Shown: positions 1 through 22,820 of the stretch, piece by piece | Layout of the letters: each line of letters opens with the position of its first letter | Position numbering within the stretch: the first letter of the stretch is position 1 | IMG/VR virus record: IMGVR_UViG_3300026512_000014 | Coordinates: 1-60,996 of that record | DNA: 60,996 nt | Origin: a virus | Taxonomy: Duplodnaviria; Caudoviricetes | Reading direction: 5' to 3' (one strand) | Notes under the pieces: model-generated | Database searches by the model: none | What the model was told of the DNA's origin: nothing | Seen by the model: only the letters and a program-made list of their open reading frames with translations | Position numbers and translations under genes: made by a program

Positions 1-508
1 CTTTGTTATTGAACCATTGAAGCATCTCAAGATTTGACAATACAGAATTAAGTGTATTATCAAATCCATTATCTTCAAAGAACAATACTCTCTTCGCACC
101 TGACTTGGTGAAGAGAGGAATCATTCCATCTATTCTATTCTCTAAAGCATACTTATAAGCATACTTTAAAGAATTAATATCATTTAACTTCCCGTCTTCA
201 AAGTCAATAATCATATTGTCGGGAAGTATATTCTCCTCGGTTAAAGCATCAATAATATTAGGCCTATAAGCCTTTAATACTTTAACCATCTTATCAATAT
301 CCATTTGGTATTCATATACCTGCTTATTTGTAACTCTATACAAATAAGCCTTGCGAAGAAGTTTTATATACTTCTTCGCATAATTTTTGGTATCAATGCC
401 ATTTAAACGCATATGATACCAGTCAAGAATCACTCTCCATATTTTCTGGTTAGCGGTTACAATTTTCCCACTCAAAATTTCTTCTGCAATTTCCCTAAAA
501 TTCTTCAT
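1..508 (-). CDS. Partial ORF (runs off window end); probable paralogue of the N-terminal part of the single-subunit RNA polymerase at 2472-5747
   Basis: Not in the ORF track. Hand translation from ATG at 508 (AAGGAG at 514-519) is open to base 1: MKNFREIAEE...AYRPNIIDAL...IPLFTKSGAKRVLFF...LEMLQWFNNK. It shares RP-x-h-h-D and LF..KSGA-x-R-h-h-aromatic motifs, in order, with the 2472-5747 protein. Confidence 0.8.
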   Translation of the reverse strand, partial: MKNFREIAEEILSGKIVTANQKIWRVILDWYHMRLNGIDTKNYAKKYIKLLRKAYLYRVTNKQVYEYQMDIDKMVKVLKAYRPNIIDALTEENILPDNMIIDFEDGKLNDINSLKYAYKYALENRIDGMIPLFTKSGAKRVLFFEDNGFDNTLNSVLSNLEMLQWFNNK

Positions 509-753
509 ACTTACTCCTTTCTTTAATTTATTTTTTTAATAAGTAAAGAAGAACCTTGTATGAATAGTCCGAGCGGGAAATAAATTGAAGAGTAGAATAA
601 AATTGGTGGCGCAGAAAAAGAGAAAGAAAAGAGAAAAAAGAAAAAAATCTGGCATTATATATTTATAAGCGTCAACCTTATATCAATACAGTCATCAACA
701 CTTACATTTTTATAACAACACACACTATAAAATAAATAGATACACTTCCTTAT

Positions 754-790
754 AAAAAAGAAAAAAGAAAAGGGAAGACAAAGCCTTCCC
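754..790 (-). terminator. Intrinsic terminator after ORF 816-1232
   Basis: Minus strand GGGAAG-gctttgt-CTTCCC followed by a T-rich tract. Confidence 0.8.
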
Positions 791-815
791 AACGGGACTG
801 ATAGAGTTACAACTA

Positions 816-1232
816 TTACGCCTTCTGCTTGGCTTTTTTCTTCAGCGAAACCTTGGCATCGGTTTTGACTTTCGGAACTGTTGCATTTACAGGAATACTT
901 TCGCCAAGCAGACTGGCTTTCAATTTGTTTCCAACTCTTCTGCGATACTCAAGCGTAGTTGGTTCTGCTTTGGTCACAGAAAGTTGATAAACGGTTTCTG
1001 AATACTCTTGGTTCTTTTCAGCAGGTTTGTTCCACGAATTCACTTCAATGGCAACATTATCCCATACTTGGCAAACCTGAACATTACCTTCAAACTTTGG
1101 CTTAAATTCATCAGTCAAGCCAAAAAGTTTGATAGGCTTGCCGATGGCAATAAGTTGGCCTTCGGCTTCAATTACCTGCTGAAAAGAAACCTTTGAAAGT
1201 TGAACAAGTTTAAAATTCGAATTAAGTATCAT
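816..1232 (-). CDS. Hypothetical protein, beta-rich with a Lys-rich C-terminal tail (possible nucleic-acid-binding protein)
   Basis: 138 aa with AAGGAG SD and its own terminator; ends KVSLKKKAKQKA. The function is a guess. Confidence 0.75.
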   Translation of the reverse strand: MILNSNFKLVQLSKVSFQQVIEAEGQLIAIGKPIKLFGLTDEFKPKFEGNVQVCQVWDNVAIEVNSWNKPAEKNQEYSETVYQLSVTKAEPTTLEYRRRVGNKLKASLLGESIPVNATVPKVKTDAKVSLKKKAKQKA

Positions 1233-1367
1233 AGGACACTCCTTAAAGTTTATTTAGCGCCGAAATCGACGCCATATATGAGTAGTCAATATTAAAATAA
1301 AGTTATAAATTGTGCAGATATATATTAAAGAAACCTGAATAAGTTTAAAAAAAAGAAAAGACGAAGG

Positions 1368-1416
1368 CGGGGATTTGTGAATACTCTCATATAGCAATCC
1401 CCGAACTATATGAGAG
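1368..1416 (-). promoter_or_regulatory. Predicted H-type RNA pseudoknot in the leader of ORF 816-1232
   Basis: Minus strand CTCTCATATAG-tt-CGGGGATT-g-CTATATGAGAG-tattcaca-AATCCCCG: perfect interleaved stems of 11 bp and 8 bp. Confidence 0.65.
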
Positions 1417-1756
1417 ATGAGGATAAAGGGAAGGAAAGCCTTCATTTATGAATAGTCAAGTATAAAACATAATTATAAGAAAACAAAAGAGTTATAAAAA
1501 AACGGGATTATATATATTCTTAATTCCATAATAATAACTATATTAATACCATATAATAATTAATAACACTATAAATAAAACTGCTATATTATTAAAACTA
1601 AACAACAAATATCTATCTCTAACATATAAAAGGACTTACACAAAAGCGGCTCTATTAATCTTTTATTCTTAATACTATTTTTCCTTACCAAATATATATA
1701 TAAATATAAAACAAAACTATATAAACACTATATAAATAATACACAACATTATAAAG

Positions 1757-1893
1757 TATCACATATAGCCATATACAACTATACAGTATCATACACAATC
1801 ATATACATACCATATACAATCATATATAGTGTCATATACAATCATATACAGTCATATACGGTCATATACATACTATATACAGTGTCATATACA
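1757..1893. repeat. Degenerate tandem repeat of ~10-12 bp units with core (G/A)TCATATACA
   Basis: For example gtcatataca atcatataca gtcatatacg gtcatataca at 1831-1870; about a dozen imperfect units in a non-coding, G-poor tract. Confidence 0.85.
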
Positions 1894-2410
1894 GGTGGTC
1901 ACACACGCCGCTAACGCTCAAGAAGGGACACATAAGAGAGAAACAACCAAATCAAAAACGGCATTATATACCAAACCACACACAATTACACACAACCACA
2001 CAGACAGCAACTCTCTGGTACCAAATATCTTTGGCCAACGGGCAAAAAGAAAGAAGAAAGAGAAAGGATACAAAGAGAAAGAAGAAAGAAAGACATATAC
2101 ACTCACACATACACTCGTATACACACATACTCACACAAACACAACCAACTGCAAACACGGCACACAATTTCATTTGTAATATAGTCCGTGAGCGGTATGC
2201 ATACAAATGAAATACAAATAATTATCTAATAATATGTATACATACATTCATATATACAGTTTTATCTATATATATCAACGTATATATACACTATAATGTA
2301 TAATATTTAAACATATAGTAATTAATAACAAAAAAATATCACAAAAATGCTTATTTTTATAACTATATTTAAAATCAATCACTTAGTTTTTTATTTCCTA
2401 TATAGAAAAT

Positions 2411-2446
2411 AAAAAGACACGGTGTACAATATATATACACCGTGCC
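2411..2446 (-). terminator. Intrinsic terminator after the polymerase-RNase H gene
   Basis: Minus strand GGCACGGTGTA-loop-TACACCGTGTC-TTTTT. Confidence 0.8.
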
Positions 2447-2471
2447 CTAAACTTAAAAAGTTAATAACTAA

Positions 2472-5400
2472 TTAAGACTCAAGATTGTCCTTAATAAGCC
2501 CCATAACCCGCTTACAATACTTGTCAGCCAGGTTATCTTTCCTTGGAATCTTAATTATGTCTATGTCAATGCGTTCATTAAGTGCATTAACAGTAGACAC
2601 ATAATGTTTAGTGATATCATTTTTGGCCTGCCATTCACCGGTAAGCCACTTGATAAGACCTTCATAGTCTACATAACAAGTGACTTTATCATAACCGTTA
2701 TCAATAGCAAACTTAATTGCCTCAATAACGGCCTGGCACTCACCAGCAACCTGTCTTGTATCAGAATCAACCTGTCCAAAATTAATATGGATAGTATCTT
2801 CCGATACATATGCCCAAAATGATTTACCGGGAATCTTATCAGTATAAGACCCGTCGCAATACATCTTTAACTCCATGTTTACCTCCAAATTAGAAAACTG
2901 GTAGGCCACATCATGCAGCCTACCATTTTCATTAAGGTTATTAAAATGCTCCACGAATATATTAACTATATTCTTTGGAGCAATACTAAAGAACGCACTA
3001 TCAGAAACCTTTGATGAGAGGAATGCCCAACAGACTTCCTCTTTAATACCAAGTTGCTTGGACAAGTTTCTGATATATCTATGGGTTTCTACACCAAGAG
3101 TATATATAGCCACGTTAACCAGCGATAATATCTCTTCTTCTCTATCAGATTCCACTCTTTTAACATAAGAAACCATCGACATGAAGAGATTGAACATCTG
3201 ACCAACAAGATAAAAACGTGGCCAATACTCTTTATTATTGGATAACTTGTTATACTGCTTTACAAGGCCGTTGGTATAAATCCAATCCTGATATATATAT
3301 CTATATGAGAAACCAACAACCTTGGAAGTCCATCTTGTGAATTTACCTCTGATGTCTTGTATATGAACTTCAGCAGTACCAAAGTCTTCATCAGACTTTA
3401 CAAGTTCTCCAAACCTTGTACACCACTTATGCAGAACAGACATATAATGTGCAAATAATTTATGAATCTGTTCCGTACCAGTAAATGCACTATACACACA
3501 AGAAAGTCTCCTCAAAGCAGAGATACTAATACCACGAAACTCCTTCAGTACAGCCCTAAATGTATCAACTTTCACAAATATTTTAGAGTTTTCAACATAA
3601 TAAATCTTCCTCACGAAAGCATCCACTCTGGCCTGTATCTCTGCCGGTGTAAGCAGACCCTCAATGTTCTTCTTCTGTGCATTAATAACCCCTTGTTGTT
3701 GAGCAAAGAGGAACTCAATGAGTTCATATGCTTCTTTAATCAACTTAGGGTTACGAAGAGGTTTAATGGGAATAACTCTGTCGCCTATTTGTACCTCTCC
3801 AGCACCAGTAAGAAAAGCATGTATCTGGTCTGCAAATCTTTCAACCATACCGATATGCGCATCATATTGTAAAGCAATAAACAAATGCAAATCGGATACG
3901 GTTTTAATGTAAGCAGGAACCTCAGGTAGTTTCACATGTGCAAGTGGCGCCACAGGACAACTCCTCAAGCACTTCAAAAACTCACCACTAAACAGGGTTA
4001 TATCATCACCATCAAAATCATGTCCACTCAACACCCTATGTGGCGCATTCATATGCATAAATGCAAAACTACCAAGGCCTTCATCATTAATAACAACATA
4101 CTCAGCAGGACAGTCTCCAGTGAAGGTAACTGGATTCTTATATACTCCTACCTTATATGCCCCATCTGCAACAGATGGTAAATCAAGACCGCTTACATTG
4201 GCAATGATGATTCTATCAATAGGATATAACTTCCTGCCAATATATACCCTTGCACCCTTGGTAATAAAACCAAGACCATGGATATATGCTTTAAAAGCAT
4301 CCATAGGCAAGGATGTAGCGGTACAAGTTGTACCTTTCTTTGTTGCAGACAAGTCGACAGTGAAGAGCCTGCGCACATAACCTTTAATAATAGTAGCAGC
4401 GTTGTCTTTGCGCAATACCTTTAAATTACCAGGCAATCCCATTTTAACTGCAACGCCATAAGGTGTAGAAATGCTGGCATTCTTTACAAGCAGGTCTATA
4501 TTGAATTTCGTATTGTCTCTCAACACCTCAACTGCTTTAGCATTATCGAAATTCCAATGATAGAACACGAACTGCTGCGACAACTGTGCACCTGCTTTAT
4601 AATCGGTATCAGTTTTCATCACCAGAAATTCATCTGGTGTGAAACTAAGCCCTTCCATATCCCCAACCAATGCATCTTGGTTGAGAATAATATCTGTCTT
4701 CTTCACCCATTTAGGACCAAGTCCCTCTGCAAGTTTCTCCCATACGGGTTCAGAAACTTCAACAAAAGTACCTTTGGCCCACAACTTGTTAGAAAAACTA
4801 ACAAGTGTGCCTTGAAAAGCAGTAAATGTATTAAACTTCGATGCTTTAGATAATCTCTTCAAGACACCTGGACGAAACCAAGCAACTACGCCGTCTGCTT
4901 CAGGAACACTGATAGCAGCGGCTTTAAGTTTTCTGTTCCCAACAAGAGGCATACCTTGCCTAAGCAAAAGTACACCAATCTTTGAGAACACCTTAAAATT
5001 TAAACTGCTGTTAATATAGTTGTCATTAACATAAGATATAATACCCATAACAGCAGCAACCTCACGAACCAAATCTTCAAGACGCATTTTCTTTGTTGTA
5101 TATATAATTCTGGATGCACCAGACTTGGGAGCAAATAATACTACTTGCTCAAGGTTTGTGTTATTAACAATTTTAAGTCCCTTTTCGGGTTTACCGCCAG
5201 ACAATACGTCAAGAACATTCCTGACTAAATCACGTCTGGTCAATAAATCCTTGTCAAGAGACTCATCATCCACCGCAATCTCAAAAGACAAGGTGTCAAG
5301 CATTAAATGCTTGAACTTATCATAATGCATATCCAAGACAGTTGGTCTATCCCAGATGTACCTTGTCTCTTCCGTGAGAGTATACTCCACATCATTTGTC

Positions 5401-5747
5401 CTCTCAATGACAATGAATCTTCTTTCGAAGATATCAAAGCCTTGAGAAGCAAACTTACGGATTGCTCTCTTGGAAAACCTCTGCCCTGCGATGAACGCAT
5501 ATGCCTGTTGTTGCAAATTAATATTTGTTATAACCTCAGGCAATGTTGCAGCGTTACACACTCTTGCGAGTTGTGCCGCTACTGCGAACCTCGCATAAGA
5601 GAAACGATTGATGAACCTGACCAATGTTGTTACAACCATCTTTGTAAGACGGCTGTTCTCTTCCTCTTTAGCAGAGTCGAGGAATGCGATAAACTTCCTT
5701 GCGAACTTGTTCATCGTATGGATTACAGAATCAATAAGATTCAACAT
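2472..5747 (-). CDS. Single-subunit double-psi-beta-barrel RNA polymerase (YonO / RNAi-RdRP-like) fused to a C-terminal RNase HI domain
   Basis: Polymerase motifs in the expected order: WAKGTF, VYKNPVTFTGD, SGHDFDGDD (DFDGDD at 4002-4019), HIG. The last ~134 aa carry RNase HI motifs YCDGS, VAGECQA, YVDYEGLIKWLTGEWQAKN, NLADKYC. Start moved from 5783 to the ATG at 5747, which has an AAGGAGGT SD. Confidence 0.85.
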   Translation of the reverse strand: MLNLIDSVIHTMNKFARKFIAFLDSAKEEENSRLTKMVVTTLVRFINRFSYARFAVAAQLARVCNAATLPEVITNINLQQQAYAFIAGQRFSKRAIRKFASQGFDIFERRFIVIERTNDVEYTLTEETRYIWDRPTVLDMHYDKFKHLMLDTLSFEIAVDDESLDKDLLTRRDLVRNVLDVLSGGKPEKGLKIVNNTNLEQVVLFAPKSGASRIIYTTKKMRLEDLVREVAAVMGIISYVNDNYINSSLNFKVFSKIGVLLLRQGMPLVGNRKLKAAAISVPEADGVVAWFRPGVLKRLSKASKFNTFTAFQGTLVSFSNKLWAKGTFVEVSEPVWEKLAEGLGPKWVKKTDIILNQDALVGDMEGLSFTPDEFLVMKTDTDYKAGAQLSQQFVFYHWNFDNAKAVEVLRDNTKFNIDLLVKNASISTPYGVAVKMGLPGNLKVLRKDNAATIIKGYVRRLFTVDLSATKKGTTCTATSLPMDAFKAYIHGLGFITKGARVYIGRKLYPIDRIIIANVSGLDLPSVADGAYKVGVYKNPVTFTGDCPAEYVVINDEGLGSFAFMHMNAPHRVLSGHDFDGDDITLFSGEFLKCLRSCPVAPLAHVKLPEVPAYIKTVSDLHLFIALQYDAHIGMVERFADQIHAFLTGAGEVQIGDRVIPIKPLRNPKLIKEAYELIEFLFAQQQGVINAQKKNIEGLLTPAEIQARVDAFVRKIYYVENSKIFVKVDTFRAVLKEFRGISISALRRLSCVYSAFTGTEQIHKLFAHYMSVLHKWCTRFGELVKSDEDFGTAEVHIQDIRGKFTRWTSKVVGFSYRYIYQDWIYTNGLVKQYNKLSNNKEYWPRFYLVGQMFNLFMSMVSYVKRVESDREEEILSLVNVAIYTLGVETHRYIRNLSKQLGIKEEVCWAFLSSKVSDSAFFSIAPKNIVNIFVEHFNNLNENGRLHDVAYQFSNLEVNMELKMYCDGSYTDKIPGKSFWAYVSEDTIHINFGQVDSDTRQVAGECQAVIEAIKFAIDNGYDKVTCYVDYEGLIKWLTGEWQAKNDITKHYVSTVNALNERIDIDIIKIPRKDNLADKYCKRVMGLIKDNLES

Positions 5748-5860
5748 TCCATACCTCCTTTCCTTCCCTCCGTTAATTACCATGACGCATAAGCGTCAAC
5801 CAACAACGCACAGTTGTTTTGTTCTCTATATCACCTCCTTTCAATAGAAATATTAGAGTT

Positions 5861-5912
5861 ATATATAACTCCACTATGTACTGCAATAACAGTACATAAC
5901 AGAATCATATAT
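5861..5912 (-). other. Long hairpin, 23-bp stem with G.U pairs
   Basis: Arms 5861-5883 and 5890-5912; every mismatch becomes G.U on the minus strand. Confidence 0.8.
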
Positions 5913-5935
5913 AAAAAAGGGGGCACAAAGCCCCC
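5913..5935 (-). terminator. Intrinsic terminator
   Basis: GGGGGC-tttgt-GCCCCC-TTTTTT. Confidence 0.9.
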
Positions 5936-5941
5936 ATCTAA

Positions 5942-6067
5942 TTAATCTAAATCAAATACATAACAAAGGTCATCGTAATAATCAGAAAGGTAAAGTAAAT
6001 TATTAAAATACGTATAAGACACACAAGTTTCCTGCAAATAATTAATTCTCTCCGAATTCCTTTTCAT
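5942..6067 (-). CDS. Small hypothetical protein (41 aa)
   Basis: GGAGG SD; MKRNSERINYLQETCVSYTYFNNLLYLSDYYDDLCYVFDLD; stop lies just before the terminator. Confidence 0.6.
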   Translation of the reverse strand: MKRNSERINYLQETCVSYTYFNNLLYLSDYYDDLCYVFDLD

Positions 6068-6084
6068 CCTTTCCTCCTTTTTAA

Positions 6085-6432
6085 TTAATCTAACCCTAAT
6101 AACATTTCGACAACAGAGTCACAAGGAACTCTATGCCTTTTACCACTAAAAATCCTCTCAAGAAACTGGCCTAATTTATGAATACCAATTCCTCCTAACT
6201 CCTCGGAACAGATATTAATCATATCTGCTCCTTCACGTACAATAGTTAATACACAATCAACATCATTGCTGTATAATACGCAATGACTATCATACTGCTC
6301 AACATGATTTCTAAATTCTTTATCGGTACCAATAAAATAATTGACACCATTATAAACCTGAAAATCAATGAGGTCCCCATTGGGAACCTCTTCTGTCAAC
6401 TCATACCTGTACACAAAAATCTTTTCAATCAT
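6085..6432 (-). CDS. Early hypothetical protein, acidic paralogue family
   Basis: AGGAGGT SD; KIFV..NGD..YFIGTDKEF..LERIFS..LLG, similar to 6453-7010 and 8742-9071. Confidence 0.85.
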   Translation of the reverse strand: MIEKIFVYRYELTEEVPNGDLIDFQVYNGVNYFIGTDKEFRNHVEQYDSHCVLYSNDVDCVLTIVREGADMINICSEELGGIGIHKLGQFLERIFSGKRHRVPCDSVVEMLLGLD

Positions 6433-6452
6433 AATTACCTCCTTTTAATTGA

Positions 6453-7010
6453 TTAATAAATAAACTCTTCTTTATGTACCCCTAATGCATCCGCAATTAA
6501 ATAATCAAGATTATACTCATATGCTTTATCGCTAAAAATGCGATACAAAACTTTCGCAATATCAGCAGCAGTTATATCATCAAGCCCATTATTATTAACC
6601 TTTTCCAATGCCTCTTTAACTGAAATTTGGAAAACAACTCTAAAATTTTCTTCAGGTATATCATTGACACTATCAACAATATACCAGCCCACTGCTACAA
6701 ATTCCTCTATATCACCATTGAAATGAGTCATCACACAATCCTGCTCAACAATAAAAATATTCTTAAATATAACAGACTCTTCTTCCACACTAACAAGTTC
6801 ATAAATATCATTCCCCAAGTCTTCAACCTCAACAATAGCGCTTGTATCTCTGTTACTATATGAAATTGTATCCTTAAAATCACAAACCACTCCAAGACAG
6901 TTAAATCCAAACTTAACTGAAAAAACAAATATTTTGTATTCATTATTCCCAAGTGGTACTGCAAAATATACGTCTCCTTCTTCAATCCATCCATTAAATT
7001 TCTTTTTCAT
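6453..7010 (-). CDS. Early hypothetical protein, acidic paralogue family with an extra N-terminal domain
   Basis: AAGGAG SD; C-terminal half NIFIV..NGD..ITAADIAKVLYRIFS..ALG. Confidence 0.85.
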   Translation of the reverse strand: MKKKFNGWIEEGDVYFAVPLGNNEYKIFVFSVKFGFNCLGVVCDFKDTISYSNRDTSAIVEVEDLGNDIYELVSVEEESVIFKNIFIVEQDCVMTHFNGDIEEFVAVGWYIVDSVNDIPEENFRVVFQISVKEALEKVNNNGLDDITAADIAKVLYRIFSDKAYEYNLDYLIADALGVHKEEFIY

Positions 7011-7099
7011 AACATACTCCTTTTTTAGTTTTTCAATTTAATTAGTTAATAACAAATCATCAACTCGCACCATTAATTCTTATTCCTATTACCTCCTTC

Positions 7100-7260
7100 C
7101 ATAAGTGCCACCTGACACGTGTTCATACACATGCACACATCAGTGTCAACTTATAATCGTACGTGTACGTGTACGTTATCTTCATAATGCAATGCTTACG
7201 TGTACTTAACAAATAACTTAAACATTGCAATCCTCTCAAAAACGAGGTAACGTACACGTC
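7100..7260 (-). ncRNA. Structured RNA element, copy 1 (unknown family)
   Basis: 12-bp closing stem (7167-7178 with 7248-7259) enclosing a CCTC/GAGG hairpin and a TGCAATG/CATTGCA hairpin, then a long hairpin at 7101-7154; homologous to 8424-8623. Confidence 0.65.
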
Positions 7261-7274
7261 ATAGAATTATAGAT

Positions 7275-7296
7275 AAAAAGGGGTCCCGAAGGGCCC
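7275..7296 (-). terminator. Intrinsic terminator with UUCG loop
   Basis: GGGCCC-TTCG-GGACCCC-TTTTT. Confidence 0.8.
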
Positions 7297-7318
7297 AACA
7301 GAAAATGCAAATTAATTA

Positions 7319-7450
7319 TTATTCTTCATGAAGTCCTAATGCTACTGCGACCAAATAGTCATAATAGCATTGATACCCATTGGAAAACATGTGCTCAAGC
7401 GCAATCACTATATTGGTCGCACTTGCTTCTTTCAAAGACTTTTCATCTTC
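7319..7450 (-). pseudogene. 3' remnant of an acidic paralogue family gene
   Basis: EDEKSLKEASATNIVIALEHMFSNGYQCYYDYLVAVALGLHEE* aligns with the C-terminus of 6453-7010 (ITAADIAKVLYRIFSDKAYEYNLDYLIADALGVHKEE); no SD-linked start. Confidence 0.7.
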
Positions 7451-7495
7451 TCTATATATCACTACTATCTATATATAATAATAATGATACACAAA
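7451..7495 (-). other. Long hairpin, 18-bp stem with G.U pairs
   Basis: Arms 7451-7468 and 7478-7495 pair fully on the minus strand when G.U is allowed. Confidence 0.65.
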
Positions 7496-7508
7496 TAAGA
7501 TATTAAAC

Positions 7509-7533
7509 AAAAAAAGGGGAGCAAACGCTCCCC
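7509..7533 (-). terminator. Intrinsic terminator
   Basis: GGGGAGC-gttt-GCTCCCC-TTTTTTT. Confidence 0.9.
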
Positions 7534-7538
7534 AAAAC

Positions 7539-7751
7539 TCAAATTCTTGTTACGGTTATGTCCACATGTTGCTCCTTGGCAACAGTGCAGACATAATTAA
7601 CAACATTAGTAAACATAAACTTGTCCAACTTATTGGACAAGTTATAAACAGAAACCACCTCAATTCCAATCTTTGAGGCCAACTTCTCGTTGACCTCAAC
7701 AACGGCCATCGTTCCCTTGATGACCGTAACATGACAATAATTATACTTCAT
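7539..7751 (-). CDS. Early hypothetical protein (70 aa)
   Basis: AGGAGGT SD; followed by a terminator. Confidence 0.8.
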   Translation of the reverse strand: MKYNYCHVTVIKGTMAVVEVNEKLASKIGIEVVSVYNLSNKLDKFMFTNVVNYVCTVAKEQHVDITVTRI

Positions 7752-7760
7752 AATAACCTC

Positions 7761-7931
7761 CTATAAAAATAATGCCGTCATTATGACGGCCATAATAATA
7801 ATTTCACGAAGCCCAAGTTCGGGCTCCTCAGGACCTGTTAATATCATGTTATTAACAACCTTGGCGGCCAATAAGGCCACCAAGAAAAACGCACAAAAAA
7901 TAAACAGATAAAATAAAATAACCGTTAACAT
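7761..7931 (-). CDS. Small membrane protein with two hydrophobic helices (56 aa)
   Basis: Not in the ORF track. MLTVILFYLFIFCAFFLVALLAAKVVNNMILTGPEEPELGLREIIIMAVIMTALFL*; TAATG coupling to the upstream gene; AAGGAGGTGA SD. Confidence 0.75.
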   Translation of the reverse strand: MLTVILFYLFIFCAFFLVALLAAKVVNNMILTGPEEPELGLREIIIMAVIMTALFL

Positions 7932-8131
7932 TACATCACCTCCTTTAAAAACTCTACGGCAGCAATATCACCGTAGAGTTTTTTAAGTTTTCTAACAGCA
8001 TCGACACGGTCATGTGCCGATACTACTGAGATGAATTCTGGTTCATCCCAGTTTACCCTAACCGCCACCACAAAAGTAATAGGAGTCAATAACAACTTCC
8101 TCATAACTTTGTCAATTAAAACATCTAACAT
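7931..8131 (-). CDS. Early hypothetical protein (66 aa)
   Basis: AGGAGGT SD; tightly packed operon. Confidence 0.8.
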   Translation of the reverse strand: MLDVLIDKVMRKLLLTPITFVVAVRVNWDEPEFISVVSAHDRVDAVRKLKKLYGDIAAVEFLKEVM

Positions 8132-8142
8132 AATACCTCCTC

Positions 8143-8346
8143 TTATAACTCTCTTACCAGGAAACCTCTCCTGGCAAGAGAATTTTTAATGGTTAATAAA
8201 TCACCACGCTCTTTCCTTATAACCCCTTTTCTGGGGTCATAAAGAGTCGCATACCCGTTAGCAACATTAAGAACAAGCAGCACCTTCAATTGGTGCTGCA
8301 AGTGTTTTGGAACCAAATCGGTCCAATGAATCTTTTTTTCACACAT
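8143..8346 (-). CDS. Early hypothetical basic protein (67 aa)
   Basis: AGGAGGTG SD precedes the ATG at 8346 (MCEKKIHW). Confidence 0.8.
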   Translation of the reverse strand: MCEKKIHWTDLVPKHLQHQLKVLLVLNVANGYATLYDPRKGVIRKERGDLLTIKNSLARRGFLVREL

Positions 8347-8423
8347 AGACACCTCCTAAAACTTAATAGGTTAATAAAACTAATTCCCTTACCGCACATC
8401 CTTTTTTCTTTATCACCTCCTTT

Positions 8424-8623
8424 CATAAGCGTCATCTGAGACACACTCATGCACACGCACACATCAGTGTTAACTTATAGTCATACGTGCACGTGCACGT
8501 TGTCTCCGTGATGCAATGCTTGCGTATACTTAAACAACTTGGGCATTGCAATCCCCTCAAAAACGGGGTTATTTTAATAAGCCCAATACGCAATCCTCTC
8601 ATAAACGAGGTAAACGTACACGC
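8424..8623 (-). ncRNA. Structured RNA element, copy 2, with an internal duplication of the small hairpin
   Basis: Colinear with 7100-7260; closing stem 8492-8501 with 8613-8622; contains both CCTCGTTTATGAGAGG and CCCCGTTTTTGAGGGG. Confidence 0.65.
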
Positions 8624-8634
8624 CAAGAGTTATA

Positions 8635-8698
8635 TATATAACTCCACTATATATCACCATATCAATTAAGATATAATGATACATAATGGAACTATATA
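8635..8698 (-). other. Long hairpin, 29-bp stem with G.U pairs
   Basis: Arms 8635-8663 and 8670-8698; shares ATAGTGGAGTTATATAT with the hairpin at 5861. Confidence 0.85.
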
Positions 8699-8701
8699 AA
8701 T

Positions 8702-8722
8702 AAAAAGGGGGCCGAAGCCCCC
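8702..8722 (-). terminator. Intrinsic terminator with UUCG loop
   Basis: GGGGGC-TTCG-GCCCCC-TTTTT. Confidence 0.9.
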
Positions 8723-8741
8723 AACAAAAAACACAAATTAA

Positions 8742-9071
8742 TTATGCACCTAAAACACCCAAAACATCATAAACATAAGGAGACATAATGTTTTGGTTCC
8801 ACGAGTTGCAAATAGCAATTGCAACTTGTGTCGCAGAAAAACCACTTGTTCTACTATTGTTATTAATTAACTCCATAACACTATCAACTCCTTTTTCAAA
8901 AACAATATTAAGAAGCGCATCATGTTCCTTATCAACATACGCTTCAAATTCTTCTTTTGTTCCTATAAACCAATCATAGGAACAAAAAGTATCTGTAATA
9001 ATAACATCACCATTCTCATCAACTTCGGTAATCCAATCTTCTACATAAAAAACAAAAATTTTCTTTTTCAT
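8742..9071 (-). CDS. Early hypothetical protein, acidic paralogue family
   Basis: AAGGAG SD; KIFVF..NGD..WFIGTKEEF..SATQVAIAI..VLG. Confidence 0.85.
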   Translation of the reverse strand: MKKKIFVFYVEDWITEVDENGDVIITDTFCSYDWFIGTKEEFEAYVDKEHDALLNIVFEKGVDSVMELINNNSRTSGFSATQVAIAICNSWNQNIMSPYVYDVLGVLGA

Positions 9072-9170
9072 AATAAATCTCCTTTTCCTCTTTTAATTTA
9101 TTCTGTTAATAAACCAAAAAACCAATAACCGCACATAATTAATATCTATCACCTCCCTTCTATATAAATA

Positions 9171-9231
9171 TTTACTTAATATCTTAATTATGTATTACCA
9201 AAAATAATACATAACTAAAACATTAAATAAA
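9171..9231 (-). other. Long hairpin, 27-bp stem with G.U pairs
   Basis: Arms 9171-9197 and 9205-9231; four mismatches, all G.U on the minus strand. Confidence 0.8.
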
Positions 9232-9250
9232 AAAGGGCCCCGAAGGGCCC
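9229..9250 (-). terminator. Intrinsic terminator with UUCG loop
   Basis: GGGCCC-TTCG-GGGCCC-TTTTTT. Confidence 0.9.
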
Positions 9251-9277
9251 AACGGAAATACTAATGTTAATAAAAAA

Positions 9278-9778
9278 TTATCTTAATTTTGCTGAATTTG
9301 CACCGCAAAATAAAGAAAGATGATTAATAACATACTTCTCATCGAGAACATCATAATGCTCCGATACACTGTGAATGAATTCACATTCACCTAAAAATTG
9401 TGCCCAATAAGTAGTTCCTCCGCTTTTACATTTTACATAGAGTCTGTTATCATCCTCAATCTTAATATCGTTCTCAATTCTTTGGATAAACTTATCATAT
9501 CTAACCGCAAATTTTGGGATAGTATGTCCAGGACTCCAAAGGTCTCCAGAAATTCTTTCCGAAATAATCACATACTCTCCCGTAGGGTCATATCCTACTG
9601 TACCATTACCAATTTCTCTGCAATCAATGTTTGACAAGCACATTATTTCGTGCTTGTTTGCGTCTTCAATTTTAATCTCGTCAGTCTGAGACAAATCTAT
9701 AAGATTTGTCCTGAAAATATTCTTCAACATTTTCTCTACTTTACCCGCATACTTTTCAATATAAAACACGCTTAACAT
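9278..9778 (-). CDS. Early hypothetical protein (166 aa), first gene of the leftward block
   Basis: AAGGAG SD; terminator downstream. Confidence 0.85.
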   Translation of the reverse strand: MLSVFYIEKYAGKVEKMLKNIFRTNLIDLSQTDEIKIEDANKHEIMCLSNIDCREIGNGTVGYDPTGEYVIISERISGDLWSPGHTIPKFAVRYDKFIQRIENDIKIEDDNRLYVKCKSGGTTYWAQFLGECEFIHSVSEHYDVLDEKYVINHLSLFCGANSAKLR

Positions 9779-9929
9779 AATAATCTCCTTTTTTTATTTT
9801 TTAGTATAAATATTTATATACCGCCTTATACCAGAGCGGTTAATAATAAAGTTAATATAAACAACCCCATGCCGCACATCTTTCTCTTTCTTATCACCTC
9901 CTTTCTTTCTGCCCATTTGGTTAATAACA

Positions 9930-9977
9930 CAGGGGGGGTGGGCAAATCCCCCTGGGACTCCACCTTTTGACGAGTCC
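9930..9977. other. GC-rich tandem hairpins at the divergence point
   Basis: CAGGGGG..CCCCCTG (9930-9954) abutting GGACTC..GAGTCC (9955-9977). Confidence 0.55.
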
Positions 9978-9978
9978 T

Positions 9979-10090
9979 ACACATATACCTCTGCTTCTGT
10001 TTGTGTATTCTTATATTTACACACATACTCCTATCTCTGCTTATGTTCACACATATACCTCTGCCTATATTTGCATACACCTCTATATCT
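9979..10090. repeat. Short imperfect direct repeats ACACATATACCTCTGC
   Basis: Exact copies near 9979 and 10048, with degenerate copies near 10021 and 10073. Confidence 0.7.
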
Positions 10091-10328
10091 TTGTGTTTTA
10101 TATTTTTATATTTTTTAAAAAAGAGTGCGGCATTTCCCTATATCCCCTTTCTTTTTTCCTTAAAAGTTGGTTTTAATATATTTCTCTTTGGTACCAAATA
10201 TAAACTTATATATAAAACATTTCCCCAAAGAAAAAAGGTTATAGAAAAAAGAAACATATGTTAATATATATATGTTGGTTATATATATTAACTGATTTAT
10301 TTTAAAAAAACATTCCACGGAGGTATTA

Positions 10329-10727
10329 ATGGTTAATTTAGAAGAAGTAAGGGACAATATTGTTATGGTACAGGTACTGGGTGGGCAGCCTATTATTGGT
10401 GTACTTGAAGACAGCAATGGTGTATATAATAATATGGATGCGATAGTGTTAAAATATGCTGTTATGTTTCAAACTCATATAGGTGAAGACAAACAAATGA
10501 GTTTTGTACCTGTTAAGTTAAGTAGTTTATGTAAAGAGGATGCTGAATATTTTATTAACAAAAGTCATATTATATTTATTACCGGTGATTTGGATGATGA
10601 AATTATTGATTACTATATTGATATGTTTAAGATATTAACAGGTGAATCAAGTTCGTCTTATGATGCTGATACTGCAGAAGAAGTTAAGGAAGATGATAAT
10701 ATTATTAAACTTAACAGTGAGAAATAA
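10329..10727 (+). CDS. Hypothetical protein (small beta-rich domain, acidic tail)
   Basis: GGAGGT SD; 132 aa. Confidence 0.8.
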   Translation: MVNLEEVRDNIVMVQVLGGQPIIGVLEDSNGVYNNMDAIVLKYAVMFQTHIGEDKQMSFVPVKLSSLCKEDAEYFINKSHIIFITGDLDDEIIDYYIDMFKILTGESSSSYDADTAEEVKEDDNIIKLNSEK

Positions 10728-10771
10728 TTATAATATATAGTTGAAAATGATTATGAGGAGTATATATATTA

Positions 10772-11392
10772 ATGGATAGATTCACGCCTGCAATAAATAA
10801 TCAAGGGATAACTGATAAGAATTACACTATATATAAATTCGGCACTGATGCCAAAATGTATATTGACGGGTTTTATATTAAAGAAGCAAATGCTATTATG
10901 TATAGAGAACATATAGACAGATTGCCTTACTTTGGTTATGACAGTCAATACTTTGATTATATATTAGAAGGCAGAAGTTATGTTTCAGGAACTATCGGAT
11001 TTAATGTATATACTCCTCAAGTATTTTATAAGATATTAAAAGCGCTTGGATATGATTATTATGTTTATAAAGAAAATAGCAAAGATAAAAGTCAATTAGA
11101 TGTATATTTTGATTCACAAGGTGAAGAAGAAATTATTGACATAATATTAAGTCAGGATTATAGTAAACCCAATGATGACTACGAAGATTTTACTTTACCG
11201 CCTAAATATTTTGATATTAGATTAGTAATACAAAATGAATTTGAAGAAATAGAACACGTGTTACTTATTAAAGATGTATATATATTAGGAATGCAAACTG
11301 CTTATAGTAAAGATGACCAGGTTATAGAGTTTTATAATTTTATTGCTAAAAGAATAAGTTCAACTGTTTATAAGGAGGGCGAATGGATATAG
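10772..11392 (+). CDS. Tail-tube-like virion protein
   Basis: Same pattern as 33409 and 34223 (G.D.K..., GR..VSGTI, FDI.., IKDV.I...Y.FIA). Confidence 0.6.
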   Translation: MDRFTPAINNQGITDKNYTIYKFGTDAKMYIDGFYIKEANAIMYREHIDRLPYFGYDSQYFDYILEGRSYVSGTIGFNVYTPQVFYKILKALGYDYYVYKENSKDKSQLDVYFDSQGEEEIIDIILSQDYSKPNDDYEDFTLPPKYFDIRLVIQNEFEEIEHVLLIKDVYILGMQTAYSKDDQVIEFYNFIAKRISSTVYKEGEWI

Positions 11393-16452: not shown

Positions 16453-18300
16453 ATGGGCAAAAAACTGCCTAAGCAATTTACACATCCTGCGTGTAAAGAA
16501 TGCATTAAGCAACAAATTAAAAAATATGGGAAAATAACCATAAGATGTAATGGTTATAGACATGCGGATTATATTATCACAGATGAAGTTAAGCGACACA
16601 TGTCTGAAAATGAAATAAAAGAATTAAGAGCATTATATGACCCGGTAGAATGGGCATATAATAATATAGAAGTTAAACCAGGACAACCATGGGTGCCAAG
16701 AGTAAGTAGAGATGGGATAGAGTATCAAGCAAATTTATTAAGATGTTCTGCATACAGAGAAATATATAGATTGGGTAGAAGAGCAGGTAAGTCAGAAAGT
16801 TTAGCAATATTAATAATGTGGTATTCATTAACTAATAATAGTTGTGAAATACTTGTTATTGCACCATTTCAGTCACAGTTAGATGAAATATTTGAAAGAG
16901 TGACATCATATATAGAATCATCACCTAAAATTAAAATAATGTTTGAAAAATTTACAAAAACACCACATATTAAATTGTCATGGAAAAACGGGTCAGTTGT
17001 AAAAGCCTTGCCAATAGGCAAAACTGGAACCACTGTTAGGTCGAAATCTGCTGATATTATAATTGTTGATGAGGCGGATTATGTTGATGAAAGAACCTGG
17101 TCCGCCTTTCTTCCTATTTTAAACGATACACCAAATACAAGAATGATGCTTGCCTCAACTCCATCTGGAAGAAAATCAAGATTTTATTTGTTTGCACATT
17201 CTCCAACATATAAAGAATGGCATTATCCATCAACAATTCTTCCACACTGGAATGACCAGATGGAAGCAGAAATGAGAGCAGAACTTACAAATGTTGGATA
17301 CCAACATGAAGTGTTGGCAGAATGGGGTGATTCAGAATTACTTGCTGTACAAAATAAATATATAGAGCAATCTAAAGCAGATTATATATATGAAATAAAA
17401 TTAAATCCTGGATGGGTATATTCTATGGGAGTTGACTGGAACTCACATAGAAATGGTACAAGAATAATTATAACAGGTCATGATGTTGCACATCAAAGAT
17501 GGAAAATTGTGTATAAAGAAATTATTGATAGCAAAGAATGGACTCAAACCAAATCTATTGAAAAAATATTAGAACTTATTGAACTATATCAAATTTCATA
17601 TGTTTTTCTTGATGATGGATATGGTGCAACAAATCTTGAAGTAATAAGAAAATATGCAGATATGGCAAATCCTGATTCACGTATATATAAAATTAAAGAT
17701 TATATTAAAGCAATCAACTTTAGTTCTATGCTTGAGGTTAAAGACCCGATAACAAATAAAAAAGTATTAAAACCTGCAAAACCATTTATGGTTGAAAACA
17801 TGGTTAGATTTTTTGAAAAGAACATTATTAATATTTCTAAATATGATGAAGATTTAGTTAGACAATTAGAAAATTATGGTGTTATAGGGTTTAGAAAAGA
17901 TAATGGTATACCTATATATGGAACGTTTGATAATGATATAGGTGACCATGATGTTGATGCATTAATGTTATCATTATTGCCATTTACCTTGTATAGCACT
18001 TTATTTGAGCAAACACATTTATCAGGCGGTCTTATTGCAGAATCAAGCGCAATAACACCAATTGTAAGTTCACAAAAACAAGAAGAGGATGATGATGACG
18101 ATGACGAAATAGAAATTATAGATTATCAAAAAGAACCGCATAAATTATCAGACGTAGAAACACAGTCATTTAAAGGCATGTCAGTTGCACAATATTTTAT
18201 GCTTAAAGAAAGACAAAAAAACAGTGCAATTAATCAATCAAGATTTTCAAGAAAAAACATAAGAAACAACCCATTGCCCAGAAAAAGAACTTGGAGGTAA
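16453..18300 (+). CDS. terL: Terminase large subunit
   Basis: Walker A GRRAGKS, Walker B IIVDEAD, ASTP coupling motif, nuclease motifs GVDW, DDGYG, DHDVDA. Confidence 0.95.
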   Translation: MGKKLPKQFTHPACKECIKQQIKKYGKITIRCNGYRHADYIITDEVKRHMSENEIKELRALYDPVEWAYNNIEVKPGQPWVPRVSRDGIEYQANLLRCSAYREIYRLGRRAGKSESLAILIMWYSLTNNSCEILVIAPFQSQLDEIFERVTSYIESSPKIKIMFEKFTKTPHIKLSWKNGSVVKALPIGKTGTTVRSKSADIIIVDEADYVDERTWSAFLPILNDTPNTRMMLASTPSGRKSRFYLFAHSPTYKEWHYPSTILPHWNDQMEAEMRAELTNVGYQHEVLAEWGDSELLAVQNKYIEQSKADYIYEIKLNPGWVYSMGVDWNSHRNGTRIIITGHDVAHQRWKIVYKEIIDSKEWTQTKSIEKILELIELYQISYVFLDDGYGATNLEVIRKYADMANPDSRIYKIKDYIKAINFSSMLEVKDPITNKKVLKPAKPFMVENMVRFFEKNIINISKYDEDLVRQLENYGVIGFRKDNGIPIYGTFDNDIGDHDVDALMLSLLPFTLYSTLFEQTHLSGGLIAESSAITPIVSSQKQEEDDDDDDEIEIIDYQKEPHKLSDVETQSFKGMSVAQYFMLKERQKNSAINQSRFSRKNIRNNPLPRKRTWR

Positions 18301-21152: not shown

Positions 21153-22820
21153 ATGAATGAACAAAATATGAACACAAAAATCACCAACACAAATAATGAA
21201 AATAATAATTCTATAACACATACCAAAGATAAAATTAATCCAAAGTGGCAACAACTTAAACCAATTTCATATAGCGCAATAAGCCAGCCAAGAACCGTTA
21301 CACCAAAGGCAAAAAATATATATTTGCCAGAATATAATTTTGTAGAAATTACACAACTGCTTGATATTGAATCTTATTTTTCAAGGTCTATTATCAAAAA
21401 AATGAATGTTATATTTAAAGAAGGATATGAACTATATTCAGAAAATAGTAGAATTTTAAAAAAGGTTAAAGAAAGATTATATGAATTTGAATATGTAACA
21501 ACAACACCGTTTGATTTATTGTTATATAATATTGTTAGAGAATTATTAATATATTCAAATGTATTTATAGCAAAAATTAGAGACAAAAAATCAACATCAG
21601 CAAAAGGCGCAAAAATTGGTAAAAAGAAAATGGTGCCAATTGCAGGATTTAAAATATTACCAACACCATATGTTGTAATAGGTACAGATGACCAAGGTGT
21701 TATTACTAATTATTATGTATCAATAAATAACACAACAATAGAAGAATATGCACCAGAAGATATTATTCATATACACAAAGATAAGAAACCTGGATTTTTA
21801 TATGGAACACCAGAGGTTGTGCCGGTTATAGAAGATATCTTCGAGTTAAGACGTATAGAAGAAAATGTCACACAAACAATATATAGAACAGCGACTCCAT
21901 TGTTAATAGTTACAGTTGGCACAGAAGAGCATCCAGCAAAAGTTTTGTCAGATGGTAAAACAGAACTTGATATAGCAAAACAAATTATTGAAAATGCAGA
22001 ACCAGGCTCGGCATTAATTTTCCCAGAAAGACACAAAATAGAATTTGTTGGTCCAAAATCTGCGACACTTAATGTTAAAGATTATTTAGCGCATTTTAAA
22101 AAGAGAGTATTTGCTGGATTATCAATGTCCGCTTATGACTTTGGAGAAACAGATTCTGCAAACAGAGGGTCTGCCACTGGACTTTCTAAAGATTTTATTA
22201 ATTATTGTAAGGGTATACAACAATATATTAATATTTTTATAAAGCAAATGTTTAGAGAAATAGTTGCTGAACACACAACTCTTGCAAACGCATATACTCA
22301 AAAATATGAAATAACAATTAAGTGGGGTGAAATTGATACAGAAAGAGTATATAAACATGAAAACGCAACTGCACAATTGTTTTTATCTGGAATTATTACA
22401 ATAGATGAGGCAAGAAAACGTCTTAATTTACCAGAAGATGTTGAATTAGAAAAATTATTCTTTTATATATCAAAAAGTGCAGAAGGCGCAGATGATAATG
22501 TATATAATGAAGAATCAGCAAAAGAACAAACAAAATCTGTAAACAGTCCTACAAACCAACACGTATCAAATATGTTAGAAAAATTTGCATTTGACAAACC
22601 AAAATATAAATATAATAGTTTAAAAGATGAACATAAAAGACGAATAATAATATCAGATATTTCTAATACTTATAATATAGACTATGTAATGGCAAAGATG
22701 TATGTAGAATTATCTGAACAATTAGCAGAAACACATGACACAACACAGAGAGATGTATATTTTAATATATATTTAAAAAGTTTTTTACAAGGAGAACCAA
22801 ATGCCAGTCAAGATAAGTGA
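21153..22820 (+). CDS. Portal protein
   Basis: Size, position before the protease, and portal-like motifs (ELLIYSNVF, EDIIHI, YGTP..V, GIITIDEARKRL). Confidence 0.9.
   Translation: MNEQNMNTKITNTNNENNNSITHTKDKINPKWQQLKPISYSAISQPRTVTPKAKNIYLPEYNFVEITQLLDIESYFSRSIIKKMNVIFKEGYELYSENSRILKKVKERLYEFEYVTTTPFDLLLYNIVRELLIYSNVFIAKIRDKKSTSAKGAKIGKKKMVPIAGFKILPTPYVVIGTDDQGVITNYYVSINNTTIEEYAPEDIIHIHKDKKPGFLYGTPEVVPVIEDIFELRRIEENVTQTIYRTATPLLIVTVGTEEHPAKVLSDGKTELDIAKQIIENAEPGSALIFPERHKIEFVGPKSATLNVKDYLAHFKKRVFAGLSMSAYDFGETDSANRGSATGLSKDFINYCKGIQQYINIFIKQMFREIVAEHTTLANAYTQKYEITIKWGEIDTERVYKHENATAQLFLSGIITIDEARKRLNLPEDVELEKLFFYISKSAEGADDNVYNEESAKEQTKSVNSPTNQHVSNMLEKFAFDKPKYKYNSLKDEHKRRIIISDISNTYNIDYVMAKMYVELSEQLAETHDTTQRDVYFNIYLKSFLQGEPNASQDK

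Follow-up and report, generated by a model that had tools for sequence, protein, structure and literature searches.

A duplicated candidate leader insert with a predicted 5′ fold in repeated gene cassettes of an uncultured hydrothermal-vent myovirus

The described elements most similar to the locus studied here are the promoter-early stem-loops (PeSLs) of T4-type phages. As set out in passages of two reports, PeSLs are repeated intergenic motifs made up of a terminator stem-loop, a promoter, and a Shine–Dalgarno (SD) motif that flank small unknown genes in a plastic early region, and the −35 region may lie partly within their stem-loop (Arbiol et al. 2010, PMC2839356; Comeau et al. 2014, PMC4122927). 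Here we analyze a duplicated element of an IMG/VR virus record, IMGVR_UViG_3300026512_000014, all 60,996 bases of which form the window. The element lies on the minus strand at 7099–7259 (copy 1) and 8423–8624 (copy 2), each time directly before an orphan SD, that is, a strong SD with no start codon in the normal range. We tentatively read it as an optional structured insert in the 5′ leaders of PeSL-like regulatory cassettes.

The likeness to PeSLs has several parts. A repeated intergenic motif with a terminator-like stem-loop is found here too (repeat family D2; four minus-strand sites), strains of the vent phage differ by insertions, deletions, and replacements that end in the motifs within a plastic region of small genes, and the terminator upstream of copy 1 covers the place of the −35 region. 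There are also differences. The virus is an unrelated vent myovirus (nearest terminase 61% identical), and a strong σ70-like early promoter such as a PeSL has could not be shown here, where −10-like boxes are present and a consensus scan is at chance (52 matches versus 51.1 expected). The leader here is long, with an orphan SD, TGTGCGG, and TTATTAAC, and two units carry a structured insert of 160–210 nt, unlike the PeSLs as described in those passages.

Two further systems bear on how such a leader might act. Parts of two reports state that strong SDs without productive translation stabilize mRNAs, with one SP82 phage mRNA depending on its ribosome-binding site (RBS) (PMC7509114), and that RNase J1 is blocked by ribosomes at a strong SD (PMC5737220). 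The put RNA of phage HK022, according to passages of another, is ≈70 nt long, consists of two stem-loops and a triplex, binds the zinc-binding domain of β′, and has a proven function (PMC9378689). Like putL and putR, the element studied here occurs as two sequence-similar structured RNA copies in one phage genome, with a cis-acting role that is predicted; its size and topology, a 98–144-nt three-way junction, are unlike put, and function would follow by analogy only.

In 1996, Agaisse and Lereclus reportedly found in the STAB-SD of cryIIIA an SD-like stabilizer of the mRNA 5′ end, and Hue et al., in 1995, are said to have described the polypurine stabilizer of phage SP82 in phage early RNA. 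The vent phage shares with these SD-type stabilizers of Gram-positive bacteria and of a phage a strong SD-like sequence in a predicted 5′ untranslated region, far from the start codon, in the form of five orphan SDs; it differs in the structured three-way junction upstream, and its stabilizing effect is a prediction. Between the early genes of T7 and SP82 lie RNase III processing hairpins, each of them single, long, and irregular. They resemble the element as repeated, similar structured elements in a phage early region, but the longest continuous helix here is 12 bp and cleavage is hypothetical.

Two copies and their predicted folds

Both copies lie on the minus strand, the same strand as the genes and terminators around them. 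Positions 7087–7209 and 8411–8533 are 81% identical over 123 nt without a gap, and a BLAST search of copy 1 against the whole record returned two places only, copy 1 itself and 8411–8569 (80%). With a 42-nt segment of copy 2 gapped out, the homology spans from the −10-like box through the fold to the start of the next gene. A small hairpin followed by ATTGC occurs three times (7227–7247, 8548–8568, and 8590–8610; 0.02 expected). A first-pass annotation of this stretch had reported two colinear copies, the second with the small hairpin twice, and both statements are borne out. The parts of the two copies are as follows, in the order in which the minus strand is read.

7248–7259, minus strand: copy 1, 5′ strand of the closing stem P1 (ACGUGUACGUUA), from the minimum-free-energy (MFE) folds and the pair list
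7232–7247, minus strand: copy 1, small hairpin P2 (CCUC, 8-nt loop, GAGG), then AUUGC; −5.7 kcal/mol, z −2.51
7188–7229, minus strand: copy 1, hairpin P3 (UUGCAAUG.../...CAUUGCA); outer 8 pairs common to copy 2, interior not conserved
7158–7178, minus strand: copy 1, alternating purine–pyrimidine tract AACGUACACGUACACGUACG, the 3′ strand of P1; two registers possible, 6 nt apart
7099–7157, minus strand: copy 1, 3′ part rich in GU, called the "long hairpin"; common to copy 2 at its base only (AUAAGU/ACUUAU)
8613–8624, minus strand: copy 2, 5′ strand of P1 (GGCGUGUACGUU), from the fold of the isolated domain
8570–8611, minus strand: copy 2, extra segment of 42 nt with the second small hairpin (8595–8610) and UUGCGUAUUGGGC, from the alignment and the folds
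8553–8568, minus strand: copy 2, small hairpin b (CCCC, loop, GGGG); U-A to C-G relative to copy 1, one of two changes on both sides of a pair
8512–8551, minus strand: copy 2, homologue of P3 (UUGCAAUG/CAUUGCA)
8484–8501, minus strand: copy 2, tract AACGUGCACGUGCACGUA; A to G in both 6-nt units, giving U·G wobbles with the 5′ strand
8423–8483, minus strand: copy 2, GU-rich 3′ part; z −0.74

In the MFE structure of the copy 1 minus strand, the CCUC/GAGG and UUGCAAUG/CAUUGCA hairpins lie within P1, an arrangement kept at 37, 55, and 70 °C, and P1 itself consists of 12 perfect pairs (7248–7259 with 7167–7178). The 98-nt 5′ domain on its own reaches −34.9 kcal/mol (z −6.05), a value matched by 0 of 200 shuffles. 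The isolated 5′ domain of copy 2 scores z −2.89 (1 of 200 shuffles as good) and keeps P1 and both small hairpins, with P3 giving way to a helix in which its interior pairs with the extra segment. This helix is formed by UUGCGUAUUGGGC with GCCCAA...AUACGCAA inside P3 and competes with a P3 of the copy 1 type. At full length, the copy 2 fold at 37 and 55 °C pairs the 3′ strand of P1 with the GU-rich tract. The junction drawn in the first-pass annotation, with TTGCAATG/CATTGCA and CCYC/GRGG hairpins inside P1, thus describes copy 1, but copy 2 folds otherwise. The long hairpin that the annotation placed next does not exceed chance in either copy (z −0.90, with 38 of 200 shuffles as good, in copy 1; z −0.74, with 48 of 200, in copy 2).

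Leader modules and cassette exchange

The long hairpin had been said to end at AAGGAGGT. This sequence is not part of the fold but the first element of a separate leader module common to five minus-strand units. Taken as a whole, the observation first recorded for this stretch survives in its duplication and in the 5′ fold of copy 1, and not in its covariation (considered below), its long hairpin, or AAGGAGGT as the end of the fold. The module has the order AAGGAGGTGATA..TGTGCGG..TTATTAAC (stop-rich), then the real SD and ATG, within 75–125 nt. Its five occurrences, together with the signals directly upstream of the two copies, are listed here.

9779–9903, minus strand: unit 1 leader, no insert; AAGGAGGTGATA 9892–9903, TGTGCG 9873–9878, TTATTAAC 9839–9846, ATG 9778, gene 9278–9778
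9072–9158, minus strand: unit 2 leader, no insert; AGGGAGGTGATA 9147–9158, TGTGCG 9130–9135, TTATTAAC 9105–9112, ATG 9071, gene 8742–9071
8626–8647, minus strand: GTGGAGT, (TA)n, and TATAACTCT upstream of copy 2; same motif at 5855–5874, with no structured insert after it
8347–8422, minus strand: unit 3 leader (copy 2); AAGGAGGTGATA 8411–8422, TGTGCG 8393–8398, TTATTAAC 8370–8377, real SD, ATG 8346
7283–7300, minus strand: intrinsic terminator hairpin directly upstream of copy 1; repeat family D2, one A·C mismatch
7263–7271, minus strand: −10-like box TATAATTCT upstream of copy 1; ends 6 nt before P1, absent from the promoter-scan list
7087–7098, minus strand: unit 4 orphan SD (copy 1), AAGGAGGTAATA; no start codon at 5–10 nt, real SD and ATG 7010 88 nt further
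7011–7086, minus strand: remainder of the unit 4 leader; GGTGCG 7066–7071, TTATTAAC 7045–7052, real SD, gene 6453–7010
5748–5874, minus strand: unit 5 leader, no insert; GTGGAGT..TATAACTCT, 14 nt, AAGGAGGTGATA 5829–5840, TGTGCG 5807–5812, TAATTAAC 5772–5779, real SD, ATG 5747

The pattern AGGAGGTRATA..TGTGCG has 3 exact matches in the window (0.00 expected), and AAGGAGGTGATA with at most one mismatch has 7 (0.27 expected), 5 of them in leaders. The SD that opens the module complements the 16S rRNA tail almost perfectly, but in all five units it is out of the normal range of any start codon; the nearest ATG, where there is one, lies 14–20 nt off, and the ATG of ATGTGCGG, present in three units, is 14–17 nt past GGAGG by hand count. 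In each module, the real SD and start follow 76–125 nt past the orphan SD. Because TTATTAAC stands in differing frames relative to the ATGTGCGG ATG, the leader is conserved at the nucleotide level.

The insert, 160–210 nt long, sits between a −10-like box and the orphan SD in two of the five leaders; the box of copy 2 is TATAACTCT at 8626–8634. Unit 5 has the same GTGGAGT..TATAACTCT motif with the orphan SD only 14 nt on, and the insert is therefore optional. This context, an optional insert in a repeated cassette of terminator, promoter-like signal, and leader, was overlooked in the first-pass annotation. Terminators related to the one before copy 1, each a hairpin with a T-run on the minus strand, lie at 8707–8722, 9235–9250, 7516–7533, and 5919–5935, and the D2 repeats cover 7276–7319, 8702–8745, and 9230–9273.

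To follow the cassettes among strains, we took variants and joints from contigs of other sequencing runs (X2, X3, X5, and X6), reading only the parts that such contigs cover, and placed the variants on the copy 1 pair list. In X3, 9253–9863, comprising the gene at 9278–9778 and the 3′ part of its leader, is swapped for 650 other letters. The corresponding joint, 9252→9864, ends at the terminator and inside the leader module (shorter side 75). A second joint, 9172→7447, present in X3 and X5 (side 46), swaps the hairpin unit 7306–7446 for a piece ending in a leader like that of unit 2. The joints 8378→9864 (side 21) and 8698→9231 (side 29) were not relied on, their sides being under 30. Related strains exchange cassettes at leader modules.

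Several smaller observations concern the same cassettes. At 7284, X3, X5, and X6 have T>C, which restores a terminator pair that is A·C in the record; given this mismatch in the stem, the strain of the record may have a leakier terminator upstream of copy 1. A loose end in X2 at 9818 carries another CCCC/GGGG small hairpin and then ATTGC. Three D2 terminators are preceded by 20 nt that are conserved as well, of the ATAATTAAT type and with stops in every frame, and repeated sequence is therefore present at both cassette ends. An AT-rich hairpin of the TATGTAY...RTACATA type follows four GC terminators on the minus strand (5876–5900, 8644–8689, 9190–9215, and 7450–7500), upstream of the leader or the −10-like box, and may be part of the promoter region. 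Between terminators 7516–7533 and 7283–7300, the minus strand of 7280–7515 folds at −66.2 kcal/mol (z −4.10, reached by 0 of 200 shuffles) into an AT-rich hairpin and a long irregular hairpin (7306–7446). This unit overlaps just one open reading frame (ORF), of 47 aa, which begins with GTG and has neither an SD nor a Pfam match; it may represent either a gene for a small RNA or a cassette in decay.

Competing readings of the element

The duplicated stretch is non-coding, since it has no SD or properly placed start, no Pfam match, and no relative in the protein collection searched. Because it is non-coding, lies between a terminator and the real RBSs, and has no Rfam family, a cis-acting leader RNA of an undescribed kind is the best single reading. 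This part of the interpretation in the first-pass annotation stands, whereas its covarying stems, 3′ hairpin, ribozyme, and protein decoy do not. Our own proposal, which we favor while giving it somewhat less than an even chance, is that of an optional structured 5′-leader insert in PeSL-like regulatory cassettes that acts with the orphan SD on mRNA stability or processing. It builds on the duplication, the 5′-domain fold, the modular context, and the strain-level swaps at module borders, to which we add, as inferred elements, a transcription start, a function at the RNA level, and a stabilizing effect.

In this proposal, the minus-strand block 1–9800 is a run of small cassettes whose genes belong to no known family, and each cassette has at its borders a terminator with a GC hairpin, a −10-like box or AT-rich hairpin, and a leader module of 75–125 nt. 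The insert would be transcribed as the 5′-proximal part of an mRNA together with the downstream genes. The 5′ end would be buried in a stable three-way junction formed by the 5′ domain; alternatively, where transcription runs on through the upstream terminator, the domain would give the transcript a double-stranded site for processing. Just behind the junction, the orphan SD would hold a 30S subunit, and the two together would form a 5′ stabilizer or processing module through which the two downstream units are expressed more strongly or at a set time. The repeated modules would double as homology for cassette exchange between strains.

Were this true, the mobile regulatory cassettes of T4-type coliphages would extend to an unrelated, barely sampled vent myovirus, and two features would be added to such cassettes, namely a long leader opened by an orphan SD and an optional structured RNA insert. 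It would also give access to the ways in which early genes are tuned and shuffled in such phages. What is new is the cassette variant, a leader with an orphan SD and an optional junction, found in a phage lineage that is unsampled. The element makes a weak candidate for a new RNA family, and it is not a demonstrated structured-RNA family; with two copies in one lineage and no covariation, we do not list it as a structured-RNA discovery.

Several results weigh against this proposal, beginning with the comparison of the two copies. We projected the fold of copy 1 onto copy 2 and compared 60 pairs (a MAFFT alignment puts the 5′ strand of P1 in the wrong place). Of these pairs, 39 are unchanged and 9 are broken, 2 of them by a gap; of the other 12, 10 are changed on one side and still pair, mostly as G·U, and 2 are changed on both. 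Substitutions affect 22 of 118 paired and 10 of 56 unpaired columns, an equal density. As a null model, the same 32 substitutions were re-dealt 20,000 times to random positions of the same base; such a model is needed because change dominated by transitions keeps about half of the one-sided changes paired by wobble. Under it, 51 of 58 pairs are kept against 50.5 expected (P 0.51), and the 5′ domain alone keeps 28 pairs against 28.45 expected (P 0.78). The three small hairpins offer a single U-A to C-G exchange, and 185 of 500 shuffles reach the observed covariation. The earlier statement that the differences between copies largely keep pairing, in covarying stems, therefore describes nothing above chance; the stems exist, but selection for pairing is not evident from the two copies.

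Strain variants add little on pairing. Copy 1 is intact in X3, X5, and X6, with one or two differences in each. The variant at 7259 turns an A-U pair of P1 into G·U, that at 7115 turns G·U into G-C, that at 8485 does the same in what we read from the sequence as a second P1 register of copy 2, and that at 7108 falls on an unpaired position; the variant at 7198 breaks an interior pair of P3.

The fold itself is open to objection. The stems are built of alternating purine–pyrimidine ACGT/GTAC units, which are self-complementary, and pairing is therefore possible in several registers. The full-length MFE structure of copy 2 lacks P1 at both 37 and 55 °C. With z-scores of −4.43 and −3.92, the plus strand scores better than the minus strand, so that energy alone cannot name the strand. 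The core helices have 7 G·U against 2 A·C pairs in the pair list, an excess that fits an RNA read from the minus strand and is a mild hint in that direction. As to transcription, the −10-like boxes are TATAAT or TATAAC only, the consensus scan of the region is at the chance level given above, and copy 1 lacks a usable −35 region, since the terminator at 7283–7300 occupies that place.

The last of these results is that no homologue was found outside this lineage in phage, viral, metagenome, and genome collections, and conservation therefore cannot be judged. Rfam 15 at gathering thresholds gave 0 matches over the full window; the first-pass annotation had not recognized the family, and on this it was right. 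At E values up to 10, 5700–10400 gave 22 matches, none near its gathering score, and those inside the copies were only mir-3804 (18.8 bits versus 90), mir-3149 (18.6 versus 100), and sno_ZL1 (13.4 versus 64). A blastn search of 7040–8760, at a setting for distant matches, found nothing among named phage records. Pattern scans, four of viral contigs (0, 2, 7, and 4 matches), one of metagenome contigs (4), and one of genome contigs (0), gave 17 matches in total, about the number estimated by chance, and all 17, inspected in context, lacked common flanks or partner strands. Used as bait, the neighboring 1103-aa and 185-aa proteins yielded no relatives. Finally, we searched 80 loci around terminase genes of distant relatives (26–41% identity; 1,216,903 bases), in which blastn-short found 12–19-nt matches only (E ≥0.14), nhmmer found no match for four queries, and three motif patterns had 0 matches.

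The absence of covariation is what a by-product without a function of its own would give, and this explanation, somewhat unlikely in our estimate, is the strongest competitor. Paralogous leader DNA would have been carried along in cassette duplication and exchange, its structure arising from alternating purine–pyrimidine microrepeats and, in copy 2, from an inverted insertion of the template-switch style. Substitutions random with respect to pairing (51 versus 50.5 pairs kept) and a 3′ hairpin that is not significant are as it predicts. Both 6-nt units are altered together in copy 2, as slippage or conversion gives, the extra segment contains the reverse complement of nearby sequence (UUGGGC versus GCCCAA), and three of the five leaders have no insert. 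The density of single-nucleotide differences in copy 1 is also close to that of its flanks (2 in 178 nt versus 10 in a 771-nt piece in X3; 2 in 178 versus 8 in 584 in X5). It accounts less well for a copy 1 5′ domain with z −6.05 and a perfect 12-bp P1, for the capacity of P1, P2, and the outer P3 all to form in copy 2 despite ≈19% divergence, and for a small hairpin present three times with one U-A to C-G exchange.

A mobile insert resembling a miniature inverted-repeat element (MITE) was considered and rejected. P1 could act as a terminal inverted repeat of 10–12 bp, yet the homology extends past P1, there is no flanking direct repeat, and the only two copies occupy the same spot in the same leader module.

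The repeats could also act as DNA, with ACGTRCACGT serving as an operator for a phage or host regulator beside the −10-like box, which we consider unlikely. The motif has 12 matches against 1.3 expected, all of them within the two copies. It begins 4–6 nt after the −10-like box and is arranged as one repeat upstream and two in tandem downstream, the latter two altered in parallel in copy 2, where the repeats are perfectly palindromic; judged by z-score, folding of the plus strand, or of a DNA hairpin, is no worse than that of the minus strand. The copies differ at the same position downstream but not upstream, so that one protein would meet unlike half-sites, and RNA is the better fit for the small hairpin, with its compensatory change, and for the surplus of G·U over A·C (7 versus 2). 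Nor was a candidate regulator identified: no DNA-binding family matched in the 10 neighboring ORFs scanned.

A shade less likely again is a genuine lineage-specific regulatory RNA that switches between two folds. The 3′ strand of P1 would pair either within P1 or with the GU-rich tract, and the switch would control terminator read-through (put-like) or access to the orphan SD, cued by a phage or host factor or by temperature. In copy 2, a P3 of the copy 1 type would also compete with the helix of the inserted segment.

We regard as improbable a processive antitermination like that of HK022 put, in which the nascent leader would bind RNA polymerase and carry it past terminators inside and after the two operons. 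By analogy with putL and putR, there are two similar structured copies in promoter-proximal positions of early phage operons, and terminators for them to act on abound: 1–11000 has 32 terminator-like hairpins, nearly all on the minus strand, against 4.4 expected, including 7774–7790 and 7859–7885 inside the unit downstream of copy 2. Set against this are the three-way junction of 98–144 nt in place of ≈70 nt with two stems, the lack of any sequence or Rfam relation to put, and the position of each copy, which comes after a terminator and not before those that would need suppression at the start of its own unit.

A ribozyme was rejected, as no ribozyme family matches in Rfam and the element is without a conserved unpaired core; for a protein decoy we found nothing in support. 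Very improbable, finally, is a gene for a small cysteine-rich protein in the colinear minus-strand frames 7123–7257 (44 aa) and 8447–8626 (59 aa), which share an open frame and a TGA end, differ by indels that are multiples of three in the alignment (42 and 3 nt), and show 8 synonymous against 11 nonsynonymous base changes (counted by hand), yet start with GTG and TTG without an SD or an ATG where the real genes of the phage all have strong SDs, are shifted in frame near the N terminus by a 1-nt indel, encode a low-complexity peptide (TYTYTY, CACV) that reads out the nucleotide repeats directly, and have no Pfam match and no relative in the protein collection searched (the 59-aa frame) or a called gene there (either frame).

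The virus and its minus-strand gene block

The record is linear, ≈41% complete, and 30.5% GC, and the virus is an uncultured myovirus from a hydrothermal-vent metagenome. The public sequencing run that matches its DNA best comes from a hydrothermal-vent metagenome; four runs of a second study contain variant strains, a sediment metagenome has part of the region, and none of the runs listed is recorded as RNA. Apart from an identical copy carried by a contig of 151,978 bases, the closest terminase has 61% identity and comes from a 2.8-kb contig; every other is at most 41% identical, and the phage lineage is therefore isolated. From ≈10.3 kb onward, the plus strand encodes the structural genes of a contractile-tailed phage, a baseplate wedge gene and the following among them.

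16453–18300, plus strand: terminase
21153–22820, plus strand: portal
26285–27523, plus strand: major head protein
30930–33386, plus strand: tail sheath

In the block 1–9800, genes and terminators are on the minus strand, and the small ORFs, mostly without a family, are separated by terminators of a GC hairpin and a T-run. Among the 10 neighboring ORFs scanned, 7 have no PHROG and 7 no Pfam match at E 0.01, and the Pfam matches of two small ORFs are under the curated cut-offs. ARAGORN found 0 tRNA or tmRNA genes. The ORF of 1103 aa, which has an RNase H-like C terminus, probably starts at the ATG at 5747, with AAAGGAGGT 6 nt upstream; the first in-frame ATG, at 5783, has no SD.

At 9979–10086, three direct repeats of 30–40 nt (GCAGAGGTATATGTGT on the minus strand; repeat family D7) sit between the early block on the minus strand and the structural block on the plus strand, in the intergenic region from which the two diverge. 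Near the other end of the minus-strand block, a gene-free stretch at ≈1700–2200 holds about a dozen tandem TGTATATGA-like units (≈1780–1900) and GT-rich alternating tracts (≈1990–2190), which resemble iterons and possibly mark a replication origin.

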